Origin: a virus
Taxonomy: Duplodnaviria > Heunggongvirae > Uroviricota > Caudoviricetes
Virus record (IMG/VR): IMGVR_UViG_3300010259_000013
Location: 1 to 18,662 of that record
Direction: 5' to 3' (one strand)
DNA: 18,662 nucleotides
Shown: positions 3,514-11,509 of the stretch, piece by piece
Position numbering within the stretch: position 1 is the stretch's first letter
How the letters are laid out: every line of letters starts with the position of its first letter
Notes under the pieces: model-generated
Database searches by the model: none
What the model was told of the DNA's origin: nothing
What the model saw: only the letters and a program-made list of their open reading frames with translations
Program-made: the position numbers and the translations under genes

Positions 3514-3785
3514 GTATTCGTATTGAAATTGGCGAACGTTATGTCGTTACCAGTGACAGCTTTCAGTTTATTCTCCACGAGAAAAAGAGAGCGGAAAGCG
3601 GTAAAAACGCCGGTCAGGAATGGCTGGCGGTGGTTGGTTATTACCCGAAATTAAGTCAGCTCGTTTCCGGCCTGATGCATCACGATATTCTGACCGGAAG
3701 CGCAAAATCTTTTGCCGATTTAAACGCGCAGGTTGAGCAACTCAGCAGGCGTTGTTCAGAGGCTTTTGGCTCATATGGCCGTTAA
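3510..3785 (+). CDS. Hypothetical early protein immediately upstream of A
   Basis: 91-aa ORF. Start overlaps the upstream stop (ATGA); the 3' end overlaps the A start. Confidence 0.6.
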   Translation: MSIRIEIGERYVVTSDSFQFILHEKKRAESGKNAGQEWLAVVGYYPKLSQLVSGLMHHDILTGSAKSFADLNAQVEQLSRRCSEAFGSYGR

Positions 3786-6060
3786 AGCCTCCGGGCGTTT
3801 TGTCCCTCCGTCAGCATTTGCTGCAGGCACCGGTAAGGCGTTTACCGGTGCTTATGCATGGAACGCGCCACGCGAGGCTGTCGGGCGCGAAAGACCCCTT
3901 ACACGTGACGAGATGCGTCAGGTGCAAGGTGTTTTATCCACGATTAACCGCCTGCCTTACTTTTTGCGCTCGCTGTTTACGTCACGCTATGACTACATCC
4001 GGCGCAATAAAAGCCCGGTGCACGGGTTTTATTTCCTCACATCCACTTTTCAGCGTCGTTTATGGCCGCGCATTGAGCGTGTGAATCAGCGCCATGAAAT
4101 GAACACCGACGCGTCGATGCTGTTTCTGGCTGAGCGTGACCACTATGCGCGCCTGCCGGGGATGAATGACAAGGAGCTGAAAAAGTTTGCCGCCCGTATC
4201 TCATCGCAGCTTTTCATGATGTATGAGGAACTCTGCGATGCATGGGTTGATGCACATGGCGAGAAAGAATCGCTGTTTACGGATGAGGCGCAGGCGCATC
4301 TGTATGGTCATGTTGCTGGCGCTGCACGTGCTTTCAATATTTCCCCGCTCTACTGGAAAAAATACCGTAAAGGACAGATGACCACGAGGCAGGCATATTC
4401 TGCCATTGCCCGTCTGTTTAACGATGAGTGGTGGACTCATCAGCTTAAAGGCCAGCGTATGCGCTGGCATGAGGCGTTACTGATTGCTGTCGGGGAGGTC
4501 AATAAAGACCGTTCTCCTTATGCCAGTAAACATGCCATTCGTGATGTGCGTGCACGCCGCCAGGCAAATCTGGAATTTCTTAAATCGTGTGACCTCGAAA
4601 ACAGGGAAACCGGCGAGCGCATCGACCTTATCAGTAAGGTGATGGGCAGTATTTCTAATCCTGAAATTCGCCGGATGGAGCTGATGAACACCATCGCCGG
4701 TATTGAGCGTTACGCCGCCGCAGAGGGTGATGTGGGGATGTTTATCACGCTGACCGCGCCGTCAAAGTATCACCCGACACGTCAGGTCGGAAAAGGCGAA
4801 AGTAAAACCGTCCAGCTAAATCACGGCTGGAATGATGAGGCATTTAATCCAAAGGATGCGCAGCGTTATCTCTGCCGTATCTGGAGCCTGATGCGCACGG
4901 CATTCAAGGATAATGATTTACAGGTCTACGGTTTGCGAGTCGTCGAGCCACACCACGACGGAACGCCGCACTGGCATATGATGCTTTTTTGTAATCCACG
5001 CCAGCGTAACCAGATTATCGAAATCATGCGTCGCTATGCGCTCAAAGAGGATGGTGACGAAAGAGGAGCCGCGCGAAACCGTTTTCAGGCAAAACACCTT
5101 AACCGGGGCGGTGCTGCGGGATATATCGCGAAATACATCTCAAAAAACATCGATGGCTATGCACTGGATGGTCAGCTCGATAACGATACCGGCAGGCCGC
5201 TGAAAGACACCGCAGCGGCTGTTACCGCATGGGCGTCAACGTGGCGCATCCCGCAATTTAAAACGGTTGGCCTGCCGACAATGGGGGCTTACCGTGAACT
5301 ACGCAAATTGCCTCGCGGCGTCAGCATTGCTGATGAGTTTGACGAGCGCGTCGAGGCTGCACGCGCCGCCGCAGACAGTGGTGATTTTGCGTTGTATATC
5401 AGCGCGCAGGGCGGGGCAAATGTCCCGCGCGATTGTCAGACTGTCAGGGTCGCCCGTAGCCCGTCGGATGAAGTTAACGAGTACGAGGAAGAAGTCGAGA
5501 GAGTGGTCGGCATTTACGCGCCGCATCTCGGCGCGCGTCATATTCATATCACCAGAACGACGGACTGGCGCATTGTGCCGAAAGTTCCGGTCGTTGAGCC
5601 TTTGACTTTAAAAAGCGGCATCGCCGCGCCTCGGAGTCCTGTCAATAACTGTGGAAAACTCACCGGTGGTGATACTTCGTTACCGGCTCCCACACCTTCA
5701 GAGCACGCCGCAGCAGTGCTTAATCTGGTTGATGACGGTGTTATCGAATGGAATGACCAGGAGGTCGTGAAGGCGCTAAGGGGCGCATTAAAACACGGAC
5801 TGAGAACACCAAATCGTCAGCAAAGAGCCGGAAGCCCGTTAAAACCGCATGAAATAGCGCCATCGGCCAGAATGACCCGGTCGGAACGAATGCAAATTAC
5901 CCGTATCCGCGTTGACCTTGCTCAGAACGGTATCAGGCCGCAGCGATGGGTGCTTGAGGCGCTGGCGCGTGGCGCGACCGTAAATTATGACGGGAAAAAA
6001 TTCACGTATCCGGTCGCTGATGAGTGGCCGGGATTCTCAACAGTAATGGAGTGGAAATGA
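3775..6060 (+). CDS. A: Replication initiation protein A, rolling-circle HUH endonuclease (P2 A-like)
   Basis: ORF 3733-6060. Starting at ATG 3775 (MAVKASGRF...) gives 761 aa, matching P2 A. HUH-type motif PHWHMMLF and paired tyrosines YIAKYISK. In P2 the ori lies inside this gene; I could not place it from sequence. Confidence 0.92.
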   Translation: MAVKASGRFVPPSAFAAGTGKAFTGAYAWNAPREAVGRERPLTRDEMRQVQGVLSTINRLPYFLRSLFTSRYDYIRRNKSPVHGFYFLTSTFQRRLWPRIERVNQRHEMNTDASMLFLAERDHYARLPGMNDKELKKFAARISSQLFMMYEELCDAWVDAHGEKESLFTDEAQAHLYGHVAGAARAFNISPLYWKKYRKGQMTTRQAYSAIARLFNDEWWTHQLKGQRMRWHEALLIAVGEVNKDRSPYASKHAIRDVRARRQANLEFLKSCDLENRETGERIDLISKVMGSISNPEIRRMELMNTIAGIERYAAAEGDVGMFITLTAPSKYHPTRQVGKGESKTVQLNHGWNDEAFNPKDAQRYLCRIWSLMRTAFKDNDLQVYGLRVVEPHHDGTPHWHMMLFCNPRQRNQIIEIMRRYALKEDGDERGAARNRFQAKHLNRGGAAGYIAKYISKNIDGYALDGQLDNDTGRPLKDTAAAVTAWASTWRIPQFKTVGLPTMGAYRELRKLPRGVSIADEFDERVEAARAAADSGDFALYISAQGGANVPRDCQTVRVARSPSDEVNEYEEEVERVVGIYAPHLGARHIHITRTTDWRIVPKVPVVEPLTLKSGIAAPRSPVNNCGKLTGGDTSLPAPTPSEHAAAVLNLVDDGVIEWNDQEVVKALRGALKHGLRTPNRQQRAGSPLKPHEIAPSARMTRSERMQITRIRVDLAQNGIRPQRWVLEALARGATVNYDGKKFTYPVADEWPGFSTVMEWK

Positions 6061-6512
6061 TGGCAAAAATTCACGAGGTAAAGCTGCACGCAAAATATTT
6101 TGACCTTGTGCTGGAAGGAAAGAAACGCGCAGAGTTTCGGAAAAATGACCGTAATTATGAGCGCGGGGACACGTTGATTTTGCATGAATGGGTGCAGGGT
6201 GTGTTTACGGGGCGAAAGGTTGAAGCCCGGATAACAGATGTTACTGACCTGTCAGACTGGCTGGAAGATTATGTCTTGCTAAGTATTGAGCTGCTTAATA
6301 CGGGCGCATATAAGATTGTGAACTGGAAAGAACTTAGTGAGCGTGGCCTGGTATTCAGAATTAATCATGAAATTATGCATCAGCTCGGCCTTGCTGTTAT
6401 GTATGAACCAGAGACGGGGATGTCTGGCGGGGCAATGGTTGCCACGGATGGAGTATGGATCTATTCAGATGAACAGATGGAGCGTGCACAGCAAAACGGG
6501 TGGCTCGGATAA
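6057..6512 (+). CDS. DUF3850/ASCH-like protein
   Basis: Tandem ATGs at 6057 and 6060 overlap the A stop. The N-terminal segment IHEVKLHAKYFDLVLEGKKRAEFRKNDRNYERGDTL resembles the DUF3850 signature. Confidence 0.65.
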   Translation: MMAKIHEVKLHAKYFDLVLEGKKRAEFRKNDRNYERGDTLILHEWVQGVFTGRKVEARITDVTDLSDWLEDYVLLSIELLNTGAYKIVNWKELSERGLVFRINHEIMHQLGLAVMYEPETGMSGGAMVATDGVWIYSDEQMERAQQNGWLG

Positions 6513-6566
6513 TGCACAGAATACCAGGCGAGATACCGCACCATAAAAACTAAAAATATCAAGCTG

Positions 6567-6725
6567 ATGGCCATTGTTCACCGTCTACAGCAGATTATGG
6601 TCAACGAAAATCTGACGCCCGATGAACTAGTCGGGTGTGCCGAAATAGTCCGGGATAATTACGGGCGACTTAACTATATCGGTATCGGTCAGTCCAGAGT
6701 TGCGCCACCACCACGCAGACGATAG
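6567..6725 (+). CDS. Possible small ORF (52 aa), weak
   Basis: ATG at 6567 to TAG at 6723-6725; the stop sits five bp before palindromic element copy 1. No clear Shine-Dalgarno. Below the ORF-track size cutoff. Confidence 0.2.
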   Translation: MAIVHRLQQIMVNENLTPDELVGCAEIVRDNYGRLNYIGIGQSRVAPPPRRR

Positions 6726-6729
6726 AGAA

Positions 6730-6796
6730 CGCCGCCAGTCGTGAAACTTGTTTTCAGGGCTGGCGGCGTTGAACAACGAGCGAAGCGAGGCGTTAG
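6730..6796. repeat. Palindromic element copy 1: ~17-bp imperfect hairpin (CGCCGCCAG...CTGGCGGCG) plus conserved 28-bp tail ending GAGGCGTTAG
   Basis: Seen in sequence. Stem 6730-6768 with inner arm TGAAAC/GTTTTCA. About 80% identical to copy 2 over ~67 bp. Confidence 0.8.
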
Positions 6797-6954
6797 TTGA
6801 CAGTCATATTTTTACTGCGTTGGTGCTGGTTTTTGACGGTTGAAAGGAGTTAGCCCGGAGAGCAAAAGCCAACAACTTACAAATATTCAAAAGTAAGCTT
6901 CCTGTTGCTAACATAAGGTCGATTTTTTATGTGGATGATGCAAAAAGGATAGCT

Positions 6955-7686
6955 ATGGATATTGTAATCGCTTTTCTATCACTCGCTTTTTTCGTTGCTT
7001 TTTTCATCGGGTTAATCAAGCCATCACTGGTGCGGATGCCAAACCGTAAACGTGCAAGTGCGGTTTATCTCGGAGGTAGTTTTGCATTGAGCATAATTGG
7101 TTCAATACTCTACCCAACAGAAAAAAGCCAGCCAGTTGCTAAAACTGAAACAGCAACCGTAGCAGAACACCAGGCTCAAAAAACATTCGAATATACTGAA
7201 AAAACACTCAAGGAATATCGGAACGAGCCAAAGAAGACTCGACACGATATTGTGAATAGTTACATTAACTTTAAGAAAGTGCCAGTCACCGCATCAGATG
7301 CATTTTATGCCTGCATGAGTGAGTATACATTTACCAAAGATGATGAGTTGAAACTCGGTGATGTTCTTGGGTGGTGCTTTAATGATTATGAAAATGACCC
7401 GAATTCATTAAACAATAAAATCAATCTTGATACATTTCAGAGTAATTTTAGTGGTTGGGATGGTTCTTATCGGCCATTGGAAAAATTAATTAAAGATAAT
7501 ATGAACGATGATTCATCTTATAAACATGTGTCAACGGTATATCATTTGGTTTTGAATAAAGACCCGCACGCCATTGTGAAAACCACGTTTCGCGGCACTA
7601 ATGCTTATGGTGGAGTGGTAAAGCAGACCGTAGCGGCGCGCGTCAACGTGCGAACGGGGGAGGTCGATTCGATACTCGACAATTAA
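6955..7686 (+). CDS. Membrane-anchored cargo protein 1 (two predicted N-terminal TM helices, ~180-aa soluble C-terminal domain), unknown function
   Basis: The ORF-track start at 6931 is GTG. The first ATG is 6955, with AAAGGA five nt upstream. Hydrophobic stretches IVIAFLSLAFFVAFFIGLI and AVYLGGSFALSIIGSILY. AT-rich codon usage unlike the backbone. Confidence 0.7.
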   Translation: MDIVIAFLSLAFFVAFFIGLIKPSLVRMPNRKRASAVYLGGSFALSIIGSILYPTEKSQPVAKTETATVAEHQAQKTFEYTEKTLKEYRNEPKKTRHDIVNSYINFKKVPVTASDAFYACMSEYTFTKDDELKLGDVLGWCFNDYENDPNSLNNKINLDTFQSNFSGWDGSYRPLEKLIKDNMNDDSSYKHVSTVYHLVLNKDPHAIVKTTFRGTNAYGGVVKQTVAARVNVRTGEVDSILDN

Positions 7687-7702
7687 ACAATATAGTGACA
7701 TA

Positions 7703-7769
7703 CCCCGCCAGTACTGAAACTTGTTTTCAGTGCTGGCGGGGTTAAACAAAGAGCATCGTGAGGCGTTAG
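7703..7769. repeat. Palindromic element copy 2: near-perfect 39-bp palindrome (CCCCGCCAGTACTGAAAC-ttg-GTTTTCAGTGCTGGCGGGG) plus conserved tail ending GAGGCGTTAG
   Basis: Seen in sequence. 17-bp stem with one G-T wobble. Sits 16 bp after the stop of cargo protein 1 and 25 bp before the start of cargo protein 2. Confidence 0.8.
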
Positions 7770-7794
7770 ATTAAAATCATTTGAGGCAGATAAA

Positions 7795-8457
7795 ATGCTT
7801 TGGAAAATAATTTCTTTTTTATTAGTTGGTATTTGTATGTTTGCTTTCGGTTTATGGTTAGGCTCTATTCAGGCTGAATGGGCGAAACCAGAGCATAAAG
7901 ATGCTGTTGCTTATTTAGCAATGATCGGAGGATGGGTCTCAGGAATTGCAACGTCAGTCGCAGTAATTATTTCATTGTATGCGACATACCAAGCATCACA
8001 GAATAATGTTGAAAAATTAAGTTTAACCTATAAGCCTTACTCTAGCGTAGACAAAGAAAATTATTGTGCCAATATTGAGGTTGTAAATTTGCGGAGCGTT
8101 CCGGTACATATACAAGAGTTTTGCTTAGAATTTAGTGGGATAAATAATCATTTCAACATAAACGAACTAAAAGCAAATGGGAAGGAGATCCCGTATTCTT
8201 TATACCAAGTAGGAGAGAAATGGGAGTTTGCCTTCTATCCTTTTGCAAAGCCGGGAAATATGAGGTTCTATAAAAGCTTAAGTGAGAATGGTAATCCAAG
8301 TTTTCGTAGTGGTTTCTTTGTGGTTAAAACATCAATGAAACAATACAAATTAAGGATGCCTAATGAGCTTTTGGAAATTATGAAAATTAGCTATGAAAAG
8401 CAAATGGAAATACGGAAGAATTATAAGGAAATGCATGGTAAAGAGATGGGCTTTTAA
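7795..8457 (+). CDS. Membrane-anchored cargo protein 2 (two predicted N-terminal TM helices, ~150-aa soluble C-terminal domain), unknown function
   Basis: ATG at 7795 with GAGG eight nt upstream. Hydrophobic stretches IISFLLVGICMFAFGLWLG and AVAYLAMIGGWVSGIATSVAVIISLYA. AT-rich. Confidence 0.7.
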   Translation: MLWKIISFLLVGICMFAFGLWLGSIQAEWAKPEHKDAVAYLAMIGGWVSGIATSVAVIISLYATYQASQNNVEKLSLTYKPYSSVDKENYCANIEVVNLRSVPVHIQEFCLEFSGINNHFNINELKANGKEIPYSLYQVGEKWEFAFYPFAKPGNMRFYKSLSENGNPSFRSGFFVVKTSMKQYKLRMPNELLEIMKISYEKQMEIRKNYKEMHGKEMGF

Positions 8458-8580
8458 AACGCATTAACAAGCATCAAATTGCATGCGCATCCCTCCCCTG
8501 TTGTGTTTGAGCGCTGCCAGTGATGGTGTGCCTCTGGCGTGTTCGTGCAACTGCATTAAAACCGCCCCATGAAGCGGGCG

Positions 8581-8599
8581 GGCGAGGCGGGGAAAGCAT
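8581..8599. other. cos cohesive-end site (P2/186 type)
   Basis: GGCGAGGCGGGGAAAGCAT matches the 19-nt P2/186 cohesive end as I recall it (the P2 last base may be C). It sits in a GC-rich, backbone-like block upstream of the Q/P packaging genes. Confidence 0.7.
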
Positions 8600-8676
8600 T
8601 GCGCTGGACCTAGAGGCTTTGCTATCTTATTTGATGTTATTGGTATTTATTCAATTGAATGACCGTAGAGGATGAA

Positions 8677-9273
8677 ATGTGTCACATTGAAATTTTTCGG
8701 GAAGCACTAACAGTAAAGGATCCTATATATATATACAGGAAGTATCTTTTAGGGCATGACGTGTGGTATTTTAGAAATAAATTGGGAAAATTAAATTATG
8801 CAGAGGTTTATGATGATCTTAAGATACTTATGTCAGAAAGATTAGGTGTTCACATTAATAATGTTGCTATTGTTGGAAGTGCGAAGTTAGGATTTAGCAT
8901 AACACCCACAGAAGATAAAGCCTTTAGAGAGTTTAACGAAGATAGTGATATTGATATTGTTGTCGTATCCCCTGAGCTTTTTAGAAAGTCTTGGGATGCA
9001 TATCTTGATGTGGCAAAAAGACAAAGAATACCTTATTACTATAAAATCACAAGCAATATATTTAGAAAGTTTGTATCCTTAAAGAATATTGATTATAATA
9101 ATGAATTCTTTCGAGATTGGAAAAACAAAATAGAACCTTGTCAAAAAGATTTGCAGGTTATATATGAAGTACCGAACGAGATTAACTATAGAATATATGA
9201 GTCTTGGGAGGATGTGGAACGCTATCATGTTCAAGGCTTAGAAAAACTTAAAAACTTAATGGGGCAAATTTAA
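8677..9273 (+). CDS. Putative minimal nucleotidyltransferase (Pol-beta-superfamily-like) cargo protein
   Basis: ORF 8659-9273. The better start is ATG 8677 (AGAGGA upstream), giving 198 aa. Candidate NTase motif hhGS...DxD: VAIVGSAKLG (8875-8892) and DSDIDIVVV (8941-8958), with a longer-than-usual insert between. AT-rich. Stop is one nt before the next ATG. Confidence 0.55.
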   Translation: MCHIEIFREALTVKDPIYIYRKYLLGHDVWYFRNKLGKLNYAEVYDDLKILMSERLGVHINNVAIVGSAKLGFSITPTEDKAFREFNEDSDIDIVVVSPELFRKSWDAYLDVAKRQRIPYYYKITSNIFRKFVSLKNIDYNNEFFRDWKNKIEPCQKDLQVIYEVPNEINYRIYESWEDVERYHVQGLEKLKNLMGQI

Positions 9274-9274
9274 A

Positions 9275-10336
9275 ATGAGTATTGTGAGAAACGTTAAAGT
9301 TGAAAGCAGAGATATAAAGTGGGTATCTGATAATTTTAAGTCAGGCGAGTTGGTTATTGATAATTCATTTCAAAGGCGATATGTTTGGGTTAAAAAAGAT
9401 AAAGTATCGTTAATTGAATCAATACTCCTCGGTTATCCTATTCCTGAAGTTTATCTGTGGCAAAATAAGACCGATCCTGAAACAGGGCAGAGAATTCATT
9501 CTATTGTTGATGGGCAGCAACGATTAGGTGCGGTTTTTGATTTTGTAACAGATAAGTTTGCATTAGAAAAACGTTATCTAGAATATAAGGATTCTGATTT
9601 TTCTGGAAAAAAATTTTCTGAATTAGATACAGAACAAAAAGCTGTTATCTGGGGATATGATTTTTCAATTCGATTTATTAATAATGATATAACTATTGAT
9701 GACATTAAAAATTTATTTCTTCGTCTTAATAGAACTAATATAACTCTTAACCCTCAAGAGTTAAGGAATGCGGAATTTAATGGTGAGTTTATTAAATTGG
9801 CGAGCTCTTTGTCGGAACATCAATTTTGGACAGAGTTCAAGGTGTTCAACTCATCTGACTTGAGACGAATGCTTGATATCCAGTTTATTAGTACTATGTT
9901 AATATTTATTAGAATGGGTATTGCTGAAGAAACATCCCAGGCGGCTATTAACAAAGTTTATGATCAATATAATGAAACGTATCCAGAGGCTGAACAAGAT
10001 AAAGAGTTGTTCATGGATTTGCTAAATCTGCTTGCTAATATGATAAGGGGTAAGCAATCTCTTGAATATATTGCAAAAAGAAAAACACACCTCTATACAT
10101 TATTTACATTGTCTTTTTACTTATTTAAAACTGGTATTGATTCTGATAGTGGGTACCAAAATGTAGCTGTAAAATTGGATGAGTGGTTTAATAATTATAT
10201 AAATGAGGTGGATTTTGATGATGAGATGGTTAACGTTTTATTAAATGAATATCGTACGCTTTCCCAAGAAGGCGTGCAGAAAAAGCAAAATAGGCAACGG
10301 AGACTGGATATTTTGAAGGGTTATATAACCATGTAA
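9275..10336 (+). CDS. DUF262 / ParB-like (GmrS-like NTPase fold) protein lacking a recognisable DUF1524/HNH nuclease domain
   Basis: 353 aa. N-terminal FQRRYVW and the hallmark DGQQR motif (9508-9522) of the DUF262 family. No His-Me/HNH motif seen in the C-terminal ~150 aa. Translationally coupled to the upstream NTase-like gene. Confidence 0.75.
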   Translation: MSIVRNVKVESRDIKWVSDNFKSGELVIDNSFQRRYVWVKKDKVSLIESILLGYPIPEVYLWQNKTDPETGQRIHSIVDGQQRLGAVFDFVTDKFALEKRYLEYKDSDFSGKKFSELDTEQKAVIWGYDFSIRFINNDITIDDIKNLFLRLNRTNITLNPQELRNAEFNGEFIKLASSLSEHQFWTEFKVFNSSDLRRMLDIQFISTMLIFIRMGIAEETSQAAINKVYDQYNETYPEAEQDKELFMDLLNLLANMIRGKQSLEYIAKRKTHLYTLFTLSFYLFKTGIDSDSGYQNVAVKLDEWFNNYINEVDFDDEMVNVLLNEYRTLSQEGVQKKQNRQRRLDILKGYITM

Positions 10337-10340
10337 TTAT

Positions 10341-10367
10341 CCCCCCCCCCTAGTATTTAGGAGGGGG
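10341..10367. repeat. C10 homopolymer (10341-10350) facing a GGAGGGGG run (10360-10367); potential C/G stem-loop just 3' of the DUF262 gene
   Basis: Seen in sequence, four bp after the DUF262 stop. Could form a GC stem with an A/T-rich loop. No T-tract follows. Confidence 0.5.
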
Positions 10368-10445
10368 CATGGCTTATTGGCTAAAGTTTTTCAGGTTTAT
10401 TTATTGAACTTGAGAATATACTTATAATTAAACAAGAGGATTATG

Positions 10446-10469
10446 AATAAAAAGCCGCCCGCAGGCGGC
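10446..10469 (-). terminator. Intrinsic terminator for the leftward Q-P late operon
   Basis: On the minus strand: stem GCCGCC-tgcg-GGCGGC (plus 10454-10469) followed by TTTTTATT (plus 10446-10453), five bp after the Q stop. Confidence 0.7.
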
Positions 10470-10474
10470 GATGT

Positions 10475-11509
10475 TCAGCCGTTGTCAGTGTCCAGTGAGT
10501 AGTTTTTAAATCGGATGACCTCCTGACCGAGCCAGCCGTTTATCTCGCGGATCCTGTCCTGTAACGGGATAAGCTCATTGCGGACAAAGACCTTTGCCAC
10601 TTTCTCAATATCACCCAGCGACCCGACGTTCTCCGGCTTGCCACCCATCAACTGAAAGGGGATGCGGTGTGCGTCCAGCAGGTCAGCGGCGCTGGCTTTT
10701 TTGATATTAAAAAAATCGTCCTTCGTTGCCACTTCACTGAGGGGGATAATTTTAATGCCGTCGGCTTTCCCCTGCGGGGCATAGAGAAACAGATTTTTAA
10801 AGTTATTGCGGCCTTTCGACTTAACCATGTTTTCGCGGAGCATTTCGATATCGTTGCGATCCTGCACGGCATCAGTGACGTACATGATATATCCGGCATG
10901 CGCGCCGTTTTCGTAATACTTGCGGCGGAACAGCGTGGCTGATTCATTCAGCCAGGCAGAGTTAAGGGCGCTGAGATATTCCGGCAGACCGTACAGCTCC
11001 TGATTAATATCCGGCTCCAGCAGGTGAAACACGGAGCCGGGCGCGAAAGGTGTCGGCTCGTTGAAGGACGGCACCCACCAGTAAACATCCTCCTCCACGC
11101 CACGGCGGGTATATTTTGCCGGTGAGGTTTCCAGTCTGATGACCTTACCGGTGGTGCTGTAACGCTTTTCCAGAAACGCATTACCGAATACCAGAAAATC
11201 CAGCACAAAGCGGCTGAAATCCTGCTGAGAAAGCCACGGGTGTGGGATAAACGTTGAGGCCAGAATATTACGTTTGACGTAAATCGGTGAGCTGTGATGC
11301 ACGGCAGCACGCAGGCTTTTTGCCAGACCGGTAAAGCTGACCGGTGGCTCATACCATCTGCCGTTACTGATGCACTCGACGTAATCCAGAATGTCACGGC
11401 GGTCGAGTACCGGCACCGGCTCACCAAAGGTGAATGCCTCCATTTTCGGGGCGCTGGCGGTCATTTTTTTTGCCGCAGGTTGCGGTGTTTTCCCTTTTTT
11501 CTTGCTCAT
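10475..11509 (-). CDS. Q: Portal protein (P2 Q-like)
   Basis: 344-aa ORF, same length as P2 Q. Its ATG overlaps the P stop (ATGA). Synteny Q-P divergent from O-N-M-L. Confidence 0.92.
   Translation of the reverse strand: MSKKKGKTPQPAAKKMTASAPKMEAFTFGEPVPVLDRRDILDYVECISNGRWYEPPVSFTGLAKSLRAAVHHSSPIYVKRNILASTFIPHPWLSQQDFSRFVLDFLVFGNAFLEKRYSTTGKVIRLETSPAKYTRRGVEEDVYWWVPSFNEPTPFAPGSVFHLLEPDINQELYGLPEYLSALNSAWLNESATLFRRKYYENGAHAGYIMYVTDAVQDRNDIEMLRENMVKSKGRNNFKNLFLYAPQGKADGIKIIPLSEVATKDDFFNIKKASAADLLDAHRIPFQLMGGKPENVGSLGDIEKVAKVFVRNELIPLQDRIREINGWLGQEVIRFKNYSLDTDNG

Follow-up and report, generated by a model that had tools for sequence, protein, structure and literature searches.

Which function should be assigned to two AT-rich genes that occupy the accessory slot of a P2-like prophage, just before its cohesive-end site (cos)? 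The question is raised by an 18,662-nucleotide stretch of viral DNA (IMG/VR record IMGVR_UViG_3300010259_000013; the whole stretch is called the window below), which is a segment of a P2-like (Peduovirus) prophage with core genes ~97% identical to those of sequenced P2-like phages of Escherichia, Yersinia, and Salmonella. The two genes, designated open reading frame (ORF) 1 and ORF2, lie between the replication gene gpA and cos. Comparative analysis revealed ORF1 to be, almost certainly, the orthologue of orf97 of phage 186. ORF2 belongs to a new, unstudied family of a familiar type, the small membrane proteins encoded in prophage defence hotspots. The two could plausibly constitute a pair of phage-exclusion genes.

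ORF1 and orf97 of phage 186

A nucleotide search with the ORF1 region matched phage 186 at orf97. The ORF1 protein and 186 Orf97 (AAC34191 / NP_052294; PHROG 3403), both 243 amino acids (aa) long, were identical at 195/243 positions (80%) over the full length without gaps (E = 2e-155), and the match of ORF1 to phrog_3403 covered 1–243 of 243 (E = 4e-145). The two proteins share the two helices, the basic loop, and the cysteine pair described below. Both genes are positioned between a replication gene and cos, with a hairpin element downstream, and the same gpA – orf97 – cos layout could be observed in relatives of the ORF1 locus. The first protein of the pair, treated as unrecognised in an earlier note made from the sequence of this DNA alone, is therefore a known gene.

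The GenBank record of phage 186 (U32222) annotates orf97 with the remark "expression from plasmid blocks 186 infection". According to the same record, orf97 is the second gene of the LexA-repressed p95 "SOS operon", in which it follows tum. Unlike its counterpart in 186, ORF1 is located behind a DUF3850 gene and a 52-aa ORF, differs in the 147 bp upstream, and has a copy of a junction element on either side. Neither a DinI/Tum gene in the window nor a LexA box in the 450 nt preceding ORF1 could be found, so ORF1 has been uncoupled from the SOS circuit, and SOS control of the gene was rejected.

The Orf97 family comprised 161 clusters at 90% identity, distributed across Enterobacterales, and its members are all named "hypothetical", with the exception of the 186 entry. 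The gene was present in 88/5426 complete E. coli genomes. A protein near-identical to ORF1 is listed as system #12 of the P2 hotspot, with 210 loci, the description "2 TM", and no function (Rousset 2022, PMC9122126, Table S5B). The N-terminal peptide of system #12 is missing from the table of cloned systems of that study, which suggests that it was not cloned there. A full-text literature search returned no study of Orf97 function. The ORF1 family is thus already named and catalogued and mechanistically unstudied, and the 12th most common system of the catalogue can now be linked to phage 186 orf97.

Two genes at the P2 accessory locus

The earlier note had described two unrelated, AT-rich genes, each encoding two N-terminal membrane helices, at the accessory locus of P2 between the replication module and cos, and this description was confirmed. 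Kyte-Doolittle analysis revealed two N-terminal hydrophobic segments in each protein (approximately aa 2–22 and 34–53 in ORF1; aa 2–27 and 37–64 in ORF2), which formed helical hairpins in the AlphaFold2 models. No similarity between the two proteins could be detected. The G+C content was 40% for ORF1 and 35% for ORF2, compared to 53–58% in gpA, Q, and P. With gpA and the DUF3850 gene upstream and cos placed at 8581–8599, ORF1 and ORF2 fill the interval which is occupied by tin and old in P2. Selection on both genes was assessed by the ratio of non-synonymous to synonymous divergence (dN/dS) against diverged relatives, which was 0.06–0.07 for ORF1 and 0.26–0.33 for ORF2; both are therefore genuine genes under purifying selection.

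The ATG start codon of ORF1 at 6955 is preceded by AGGA 9 nt upstream, and GAGG is located upstream of the start of ORF2. The mechanically called ORF1 begins at a GTG at 6931; 186 Orf97 and the RefSeq annotation take the ATG. A TTCAAA-N17-TAACAT arrangement at 6887–6915 resembles, by eye, a weak promoter at best and was not relied on.

Scans of both proteins against Pfam, NCBIfam, and PADLOC gave no usable match, in agreement with the earlier statement that no motif was recognisable, and the PHROGs scan matched only families of unknown function. The Tin homologue that the earlier note had considered possible was rejected for both proteins, since BLASTP against P2 Tin (NP_046797) yielded E = 1.3 for ORF1 and 0.023 for ORF2, over segments of 14–20 residues. 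The absence of P2 old was upheld, as no OLD-family protein (AAA-type ATPase plus Toprim) could be matched by Pfam or PADLOC in ORF1 to ORF4. In common with tin and old of P2, the window genes are AT-rich and lie in the slot that runs from gpA/Orf91 (DUF3850) to cos. The direction of transcription differs, however, being leftward for tin and old and rightward for ORF1 and ORF2, and neither Tin nor Old resembles the small two-helix membrane proteins encoded here.

Predicted anatomy of the ORF1 protein

The AlphaFold2 model of ORF1 placed helices at aa 2–21 and 31–52, followed by a disordered linker (aa 56–73) and a C-terminal domain with a predicted local distance difference test (pLDDT) score above 90 (aa 81–243). 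In a set of 48 homologues, the inter-helix loop, KPSLVRMPNRKR, contained a mean of 3.7 K/R and 0.02 D/E residues, the N terminus was uncharged, and the loop residues P23, V26, M28, P29, and R31 were invariant. Because the loop is basic, the positive-inside rule would place it in the cytoplasm and the N terminus and the C-terminal domain in the periplasm. A periplasmic orientation of the C-terminal domain is accordingly predicted from the charge pattern, together with a cysteine pair and a weak HdeA-like fold match. Residues C120 and C141, located in adjacent helices of this domain, were also invariant in the 48 homologues, a pattern that fits a putative periplasmic disulfide.

The best fold matches of the ORF1 domain were all to periplasmic proteins: HdeA, HdeB, YmgD, Rap1a, and Tai4. 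The acid-stress chaperone HdeA ranked first, with a weak match. The matched proteins are all-helical, and the scores are best taken as resemblance rather than homology. The ORF1 family profile found no match among PDB sequences.

The ORF2 family

ORF2 matched a single PHROG, phrog_16957 (E = 6.5e-70), to which no function is assigned; full-length similarity, the two helices, and the GGWVSG..AT motif in the second transmembrane helix (TM2) were all present. A word-indexed search recovered 22 clusters of relatives at 90% identity, and a full hidden Markov model search of 1.84 billion proteins extended the family to 48 representatives at 50% identity, with lengths of ~180–230 aa. All relatives were hypothetical, and no named protein was among them. 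Using blastn, close relatives could be detected in 4/5426 complete E. coli genomes, a figure that covers close relatives only because divergent alleles are invisible to blastn. The idea that ORF2 is very rare was dropped when protein-level searches revealed many divergent alleles.

In 21/23 IMG/VR loci the ORF2-family gene was located directly before cos and the portal gene of a P2/186-like genome. The same slot was retained by relatives of 29–31% identity in Serratia proteamaculans and another enterobacterium. Where the context could be read, it was a P2/186-like prophage, and the family was found almost only at the slot directly before cos. Family members in IMG/VR were 24% to 99% identical to the ORF2 of the window, and the adjacent orf97 was 80–100% identical. 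Being restricted to the hotspot and highly polymorphic, the family offers a cheap, well-defined candidate for phage challenge.

The most conserved part of the protein was TM2, with the core M.GGWVSG.AT..AV.VSL, in which G45, W47, and A56 were invariant in members down to 18% identity. TM2 was rich in small residues, and the C-terminal region was far more variable. The regional dN/dS values were 0.04–0.2 for the transmembrane hairpin and 0.23–0.35 for the C-terminal domain. The conserved, small-residue TM2 suggests an oligomerising membrane core, and the faster-evolving beta-sandwich, predicted to be cytoplasmic, suggests a recognition module. The N terminus was basic with an invariant K4, the loop was net acidic with invariant E28 and E33, and distant members carried basic residues directly after TM2. 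From these charges, a topology with both termini inside and the beta-sandwich in the cytoplasm may be predicted with moderate confidence at best. The C-terminal domains of ORF1 and ORF2 would then probably lie on opposite sides of the membrane, in the periplasm and the cytoplasm, respectively.

The ORF2 profile gave only chance-level matches to PDB sequences. The Foldseek check that had been proposed for the C-terminal domains was run on ORF2 against BFVD and returned only matches of low TM (template modelling) score, to uncharacterised proteins.

Proposed function of ORF1 and ORF2

Anti-phage genes are known to come from the P2 gpA–cos interval, a considerable part of whose cargo lacks annotation, and the gpA–gpQ region has been validated as a defence hotspot (PMC9122126; PMC9519451). 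Membrane proteins of the hotspot can serve defence, as seen in the AC1 "2TM + 1TM + TIR" system (Rousset 2022); unlike that system, ORF1 and ORF2 have neither a TIR partner nor a PADLOC match. We favour, with roughly even confidence, a reading in which ORF1 and ORF2 are two independent single-gene cassettes, the first acting by envelope exclusion and the second as an exclusion or abortive-infection effector.

An envelope-level exclusion by ORF1 is somewhat probable. The identity of the gene comes from comparison and the phenotype from the 186 annotation; the topology and the mechanism are what we infer from them. ORF1 would span the inner membrane, its N terminus facing outward, with a short, basic, and conserved loop in the cytoplasm and a folded periplasmic domain that a disulfide bond stabilises. 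Acting at the envelope, it may shut out superinfecting phages of the P2/186 type at a stage that follows adsorption and precedes or coincides with DNA entry; the cell would survive. The strong purifying selection and conservation of ORF1 suggest a conserved target, which could be a host envelope component or a virion ejection protein.

ORF2 may be an inner-membrane protein whose transmembrane core oligomerises and whose variable cytoplasmic domain serves recognition, and it would act at the membrane in exclusion or abortive infection. This anti-phage role is put forward tentatively and at less than even confidence, with hotspot position and architecture as its whole basis. The suggestion of the earlier note that the cargo serves superinfection exclusion or abortive infection is thus supported for ORF1 by the annotation of 186 orf97, and for ORF2 it stays at the level of position and architecture.

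Small phage-encoded proteins of the inner membrane or periplasm, such as T4 Imm and Sp, P22 SieA, P1 Sim, and HK97 gp15, mediate exclusion by blocking a step between adsorption and DNA entry. As predicted two-helix proteins, ORF1 and ORF2 are prophage-encoded envelope proteins, as is characteristic of the superinfection-exclusion class, and no sequence or fold relationship to the five named proteins could be detected. The finding of the two genes is correct and provides two cheap experimental candidates, although a specialist would not be surprised by it.

Several points weigh against the favoured reading. The sole phenotype is the one-line GenBank note on the 186 orthologue, with none for the prophage of the window, and this note fits exclusion, toxicity, or later-stage interference alike. 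A sigma-70 scan revealed no convincing promoter upstream of ORF1 or ORF2, and with no LexA box upstream of ORF1 either, expression of the two genes in the lysogen is unproven. Neither protein had a match in PADLOC-DB v2 at E values up to 0.1, and the topology predicted for ORF2 depends on small charge differences. Only 3/8 additional candidates from the P2 hotspot were active (PMC9122126), and the hotspot holds non-defence cargo as well, including partition systems and toxins (PMC9122126).

The last point also favours an alternative in which one or both genes serve the phage cycle or host physiology rather than defence, for example as an SOS-linked induction helper, a periplasmic chaperone-like factor, a lysis-timing modulator, or a neutral moron. 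In phage 186, orf97 and the antirepressor gene tum share a LexA-controlled transcript, and the two together have been loosely described as an induction system (PMC5322425). The window orf97, however, occurs without tum or a LexA box and has therefore been retained without the induction circuit. The weak match to HdeA would agree with a chaperone-like factor, and the dN/dS of 0.06 of ORF1, which is kept across Enterobacterales, is more in line with a fixed target in the cell or the virion than with an arms race. Nevertheless, the phenotype annotated for orf97 is a block of infection, and its neighbouring accessory ORFs in 186 are annotated as not essential (U32222). As for ORF2, it is distant from the lysis cassette and has a fast-evolving C-terminal domain. 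A non-defence role is accordingly considered unlikely.

Linkage of the two genes

The independence of the two cassettes, as assumed in the favoured reading, was evaluated from their occurrence in related loci. An ORF2-family gene was present directly behind orf97 in 16/21 IMG/VR loci. All 4 complete E. coli genomes with a close ORF2 relative had it adjoining orf97, even though orf97 itself is found in so few of the genomes searched. This pairing was observed on both P2-like and 186-like backbones, and the predicted topologies of the two proteins are complementary. These results could be explained by a two-component membrane module, in which the periplasmic Orf97 works with a hypervariable, cytoplasm-facing partner of the ORF2 type.

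Against such a module, phage 186 carries orf97 alone, and the annotated phenotype comes from orf97 alone. In IMG/VR, 58/77 orf97 loci (~75%) lacked an ORF2-family gene and had a single other gene or nothing between orf97 and cos. Conversely, ORF2 relatives occurred without orf97 in loci L008, L011, L012, L141, L143, L144, and L152. Synonymous divergence (dS) against the same relatives (L002 and L004) was 1.7–2.0 for ORF1 and 0.55–0.84 for ORF2, so the histories of the two genes differ; by this measure, the ORF2 cassette would have been swapped in more recently than orf97. Moreover, adjacency is expected in a short locus in which orf97 favours the first slot and ORF2 the last, and the counts are inflated by the shared ancestry of the loci. 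The two-component module is therefore regarded as quite unlikely, and ORF1 and ORF2 are read as frequently linked but separable cassettes.

The interval between orf97 and the portal gene, examined in the IMG/VR orf97 loci L157–L236, contained an ORF2-family gene in about 17–19/77 loci. Another recurrent family, of 126–266 aa, occupied the slot behind orf97 in 17 of the 77, and several soluble 311–429-aa proteins and an RT-Abi-P2-like reverse transcriptase were also found there. In 11 of 77 loci the slot was empty, with ~500 bp to cos. The last slot before cos carried many alternative genes in relatives, known defence genes among them.

A further alternative would make ORF2 an exclusion protein in the manner of T4 Imm or P22 SieA, which stops DNA entry, instead of an abortive-infection pore; the cell would survive, and the C-terminal domain would be no sensor. 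In its favour, ORF2 is a small, predicted two-helix inner-membrane prophage protein beside another candidate exclusion gene and is most conserved in its membrane region, as if it contacted a conserved host or injection component. Against it, no sequence or fold link to known superinfection-exclusion proteins was found, the bulk of the protein is predicted to be cytoplasmic, and the variability of the C-terminal domain suggests that it recognises a partner which itself varies. This alternative seems improbable.

Signs of decay and rearrangement at the locus could be seen in two relatives. Of orf97, L009 had only the last ~59 codons left (3699–3887), with tum on one side and a relative of ORF2 on the other. 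In E. coli NZ_CP182374.1 (strain bR_120_Kylling, hit H32), the interval to which ORF1 and ORF2 matched contained an IS3-family transposase.

The junction element

A conserved element of ~70 nt, consisting of a hairpin with a 19-bp stem and a 5-nt loop followed by GAGGCGTTAG, occurs on both sides of ORF1, where the two copies form an 81%-identical direct repeat. The same element was present 3' of orf97 in phage 186 and could be found in 63 phage records and at least 119 IMG/VR contigs (L015 onward); a further copy was seen in L003 at ~4773–4840. The majority of these loci had Peduoviridae markers within the available stretch. Its position was immediately 3' of the 52-aa ORF, of orf97, or of tum. 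Similarity stopped abruptly past GAGGCGTTAG, and the element forms the left boundary of the variable region.

The stem was 93.5% paired and contained 4 compensatory pairs, and G.U wobbles at three stem positions are valid only in plus-strand RNA. The hairpin is not a typical intrinsic terminator because it has no U-tract. It may represent an RNA 3' structure and/or a left recombination anchor for cassette exchange. No description of the element was found in a 2026 Nucleic Acids Research study of these hotspots, and the border hairpin provides a concrete handle on cassette exchange in P2/186-like phages.

A wider proposal combines this border with the variability of ORF2. The ORF2 family would be a hypervariable membrane specificity gene at a fixed P2/186-like slot, acting with or alongside Orf97 in a two-layer envelope exclusion module, and its alleles would be swapped by recombination between the hairpin junction on the left and cos on the right. 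We give this proposal little credence at present.

Genomic context and cargo beyond cos

The features of the window are listed in Table 1. The cos sequence GGCGAGGCGGGGAAAGCAT aligned with the annotated P2 cosR at 18/19 positions. The protein encoded at 6024–6512 is the counterpart of P2 Orf91 with an extra C-terminal domain in the window, and its mechanically called ORF shares 37 nt with the end of gpA. Another mechanical ORF, 8520–8675, spans cos and is almost certainly not a gene. An Rfam scan of 6400–10500 returned nothing credible.

Table 1. Coordinates of the annotated features in the 18,662-nt window
Feature	Position	Strand	Remarks
Integrase	203–1216	−	
C repressor	1332–1631	−	
cox, then B	between C repressor and gpA		
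gpA	3733–6060		Phage_GPA, E = 3e-124
DUF3850/ASCH gene	6024–6512		encodes DUF3850/ASCH plus DUF7415
52-aa ORF (phrog_11386)	6567–6725		conserved; stops right at junction element copy 1
Junction element copy 1	6729–6807	+	direct repeat, inverted repeat; just after the 52-aa ORF, upstream of ORF1
ORF1, 243 aa	6955–7686	+	phage 186 orf97 orthologue (almost certain)
ORF1 membrane anchor	6958–7113	+	TM1 aa 2–22, basic loop KPSLVRMPNRKR, TM2 aa 34–53
ORF1 C-terminal domain, aa 81–243	7195–7683	+	predicted periplasmic; helical subdomain plus 4-stranded sheet
Junction element copy 2	7702–7780	+	between ORF1 and ORF2
ORF2, 220 aa, phrog_16957	7795–8457	+	small uncharacterised family
ORF2 transmembrane hairpin, aa 2–27 and 37–64	7798–7986	+	TM2 is the conserved core
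ORF2 C-terminal beta-sandwich and terminal amphipathic helix, aa 71–220	8005–8454	+	predicted cytoplasmic
cos, 19-nt cohesive-end sequence GGCGAGGCGGGGAAAGCAT	8581–8599	+	right border of the ORF1/ORF2 slot
ORF3, 204 aa	8659–9273		AT-rich
ORF4, 353 aa	9275–10336		AT-rich; ParB/DUF262 protein
Portal Q	10475–11509	−	followed by terminase P and capsid genes

The AT-rich cargo noted earlier for the ORF1/ORF2 slot also extends past cos, which the earlier note had missed. Between cos and the portal gene, ORF3 and ORF4 (8659–10336) form a further AT-rich pair with ~32% G+C content. ORF3 matched a nucleotidyltransferase profile (NTP_transf_2) below threshold, at 20.1 bits with the cut-off set at 21. 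ORF4 matched GmrSD_N (E = 3.5e-22) and, in the PADLOC check proposed by the earlier note, which was negative for ORF1 and ORF2, NsnA (2.8e-40) and PD-T4-2_A (6e-18). No NsnB or NsnC partner accompanied ORF4. The pair had no megablast match in the 5426 complete E. coli genomes and was not found in the 119 IMG/VR loci with the junction element that were checked. ORF3 and ORF4 are likely a separate defence candidate.

A near-perfect palindrome, TCCTATATATATATACAGGA, could be observed at 8721–8740 inside the 5' part of ORF3, one mismatch from the LexA-box core CTGT-N8-ACAG. AT-rich DNA could produce such a sequence by chance; alternatively, it could be an operator, in which case ORF3 would have to start at a later codon.

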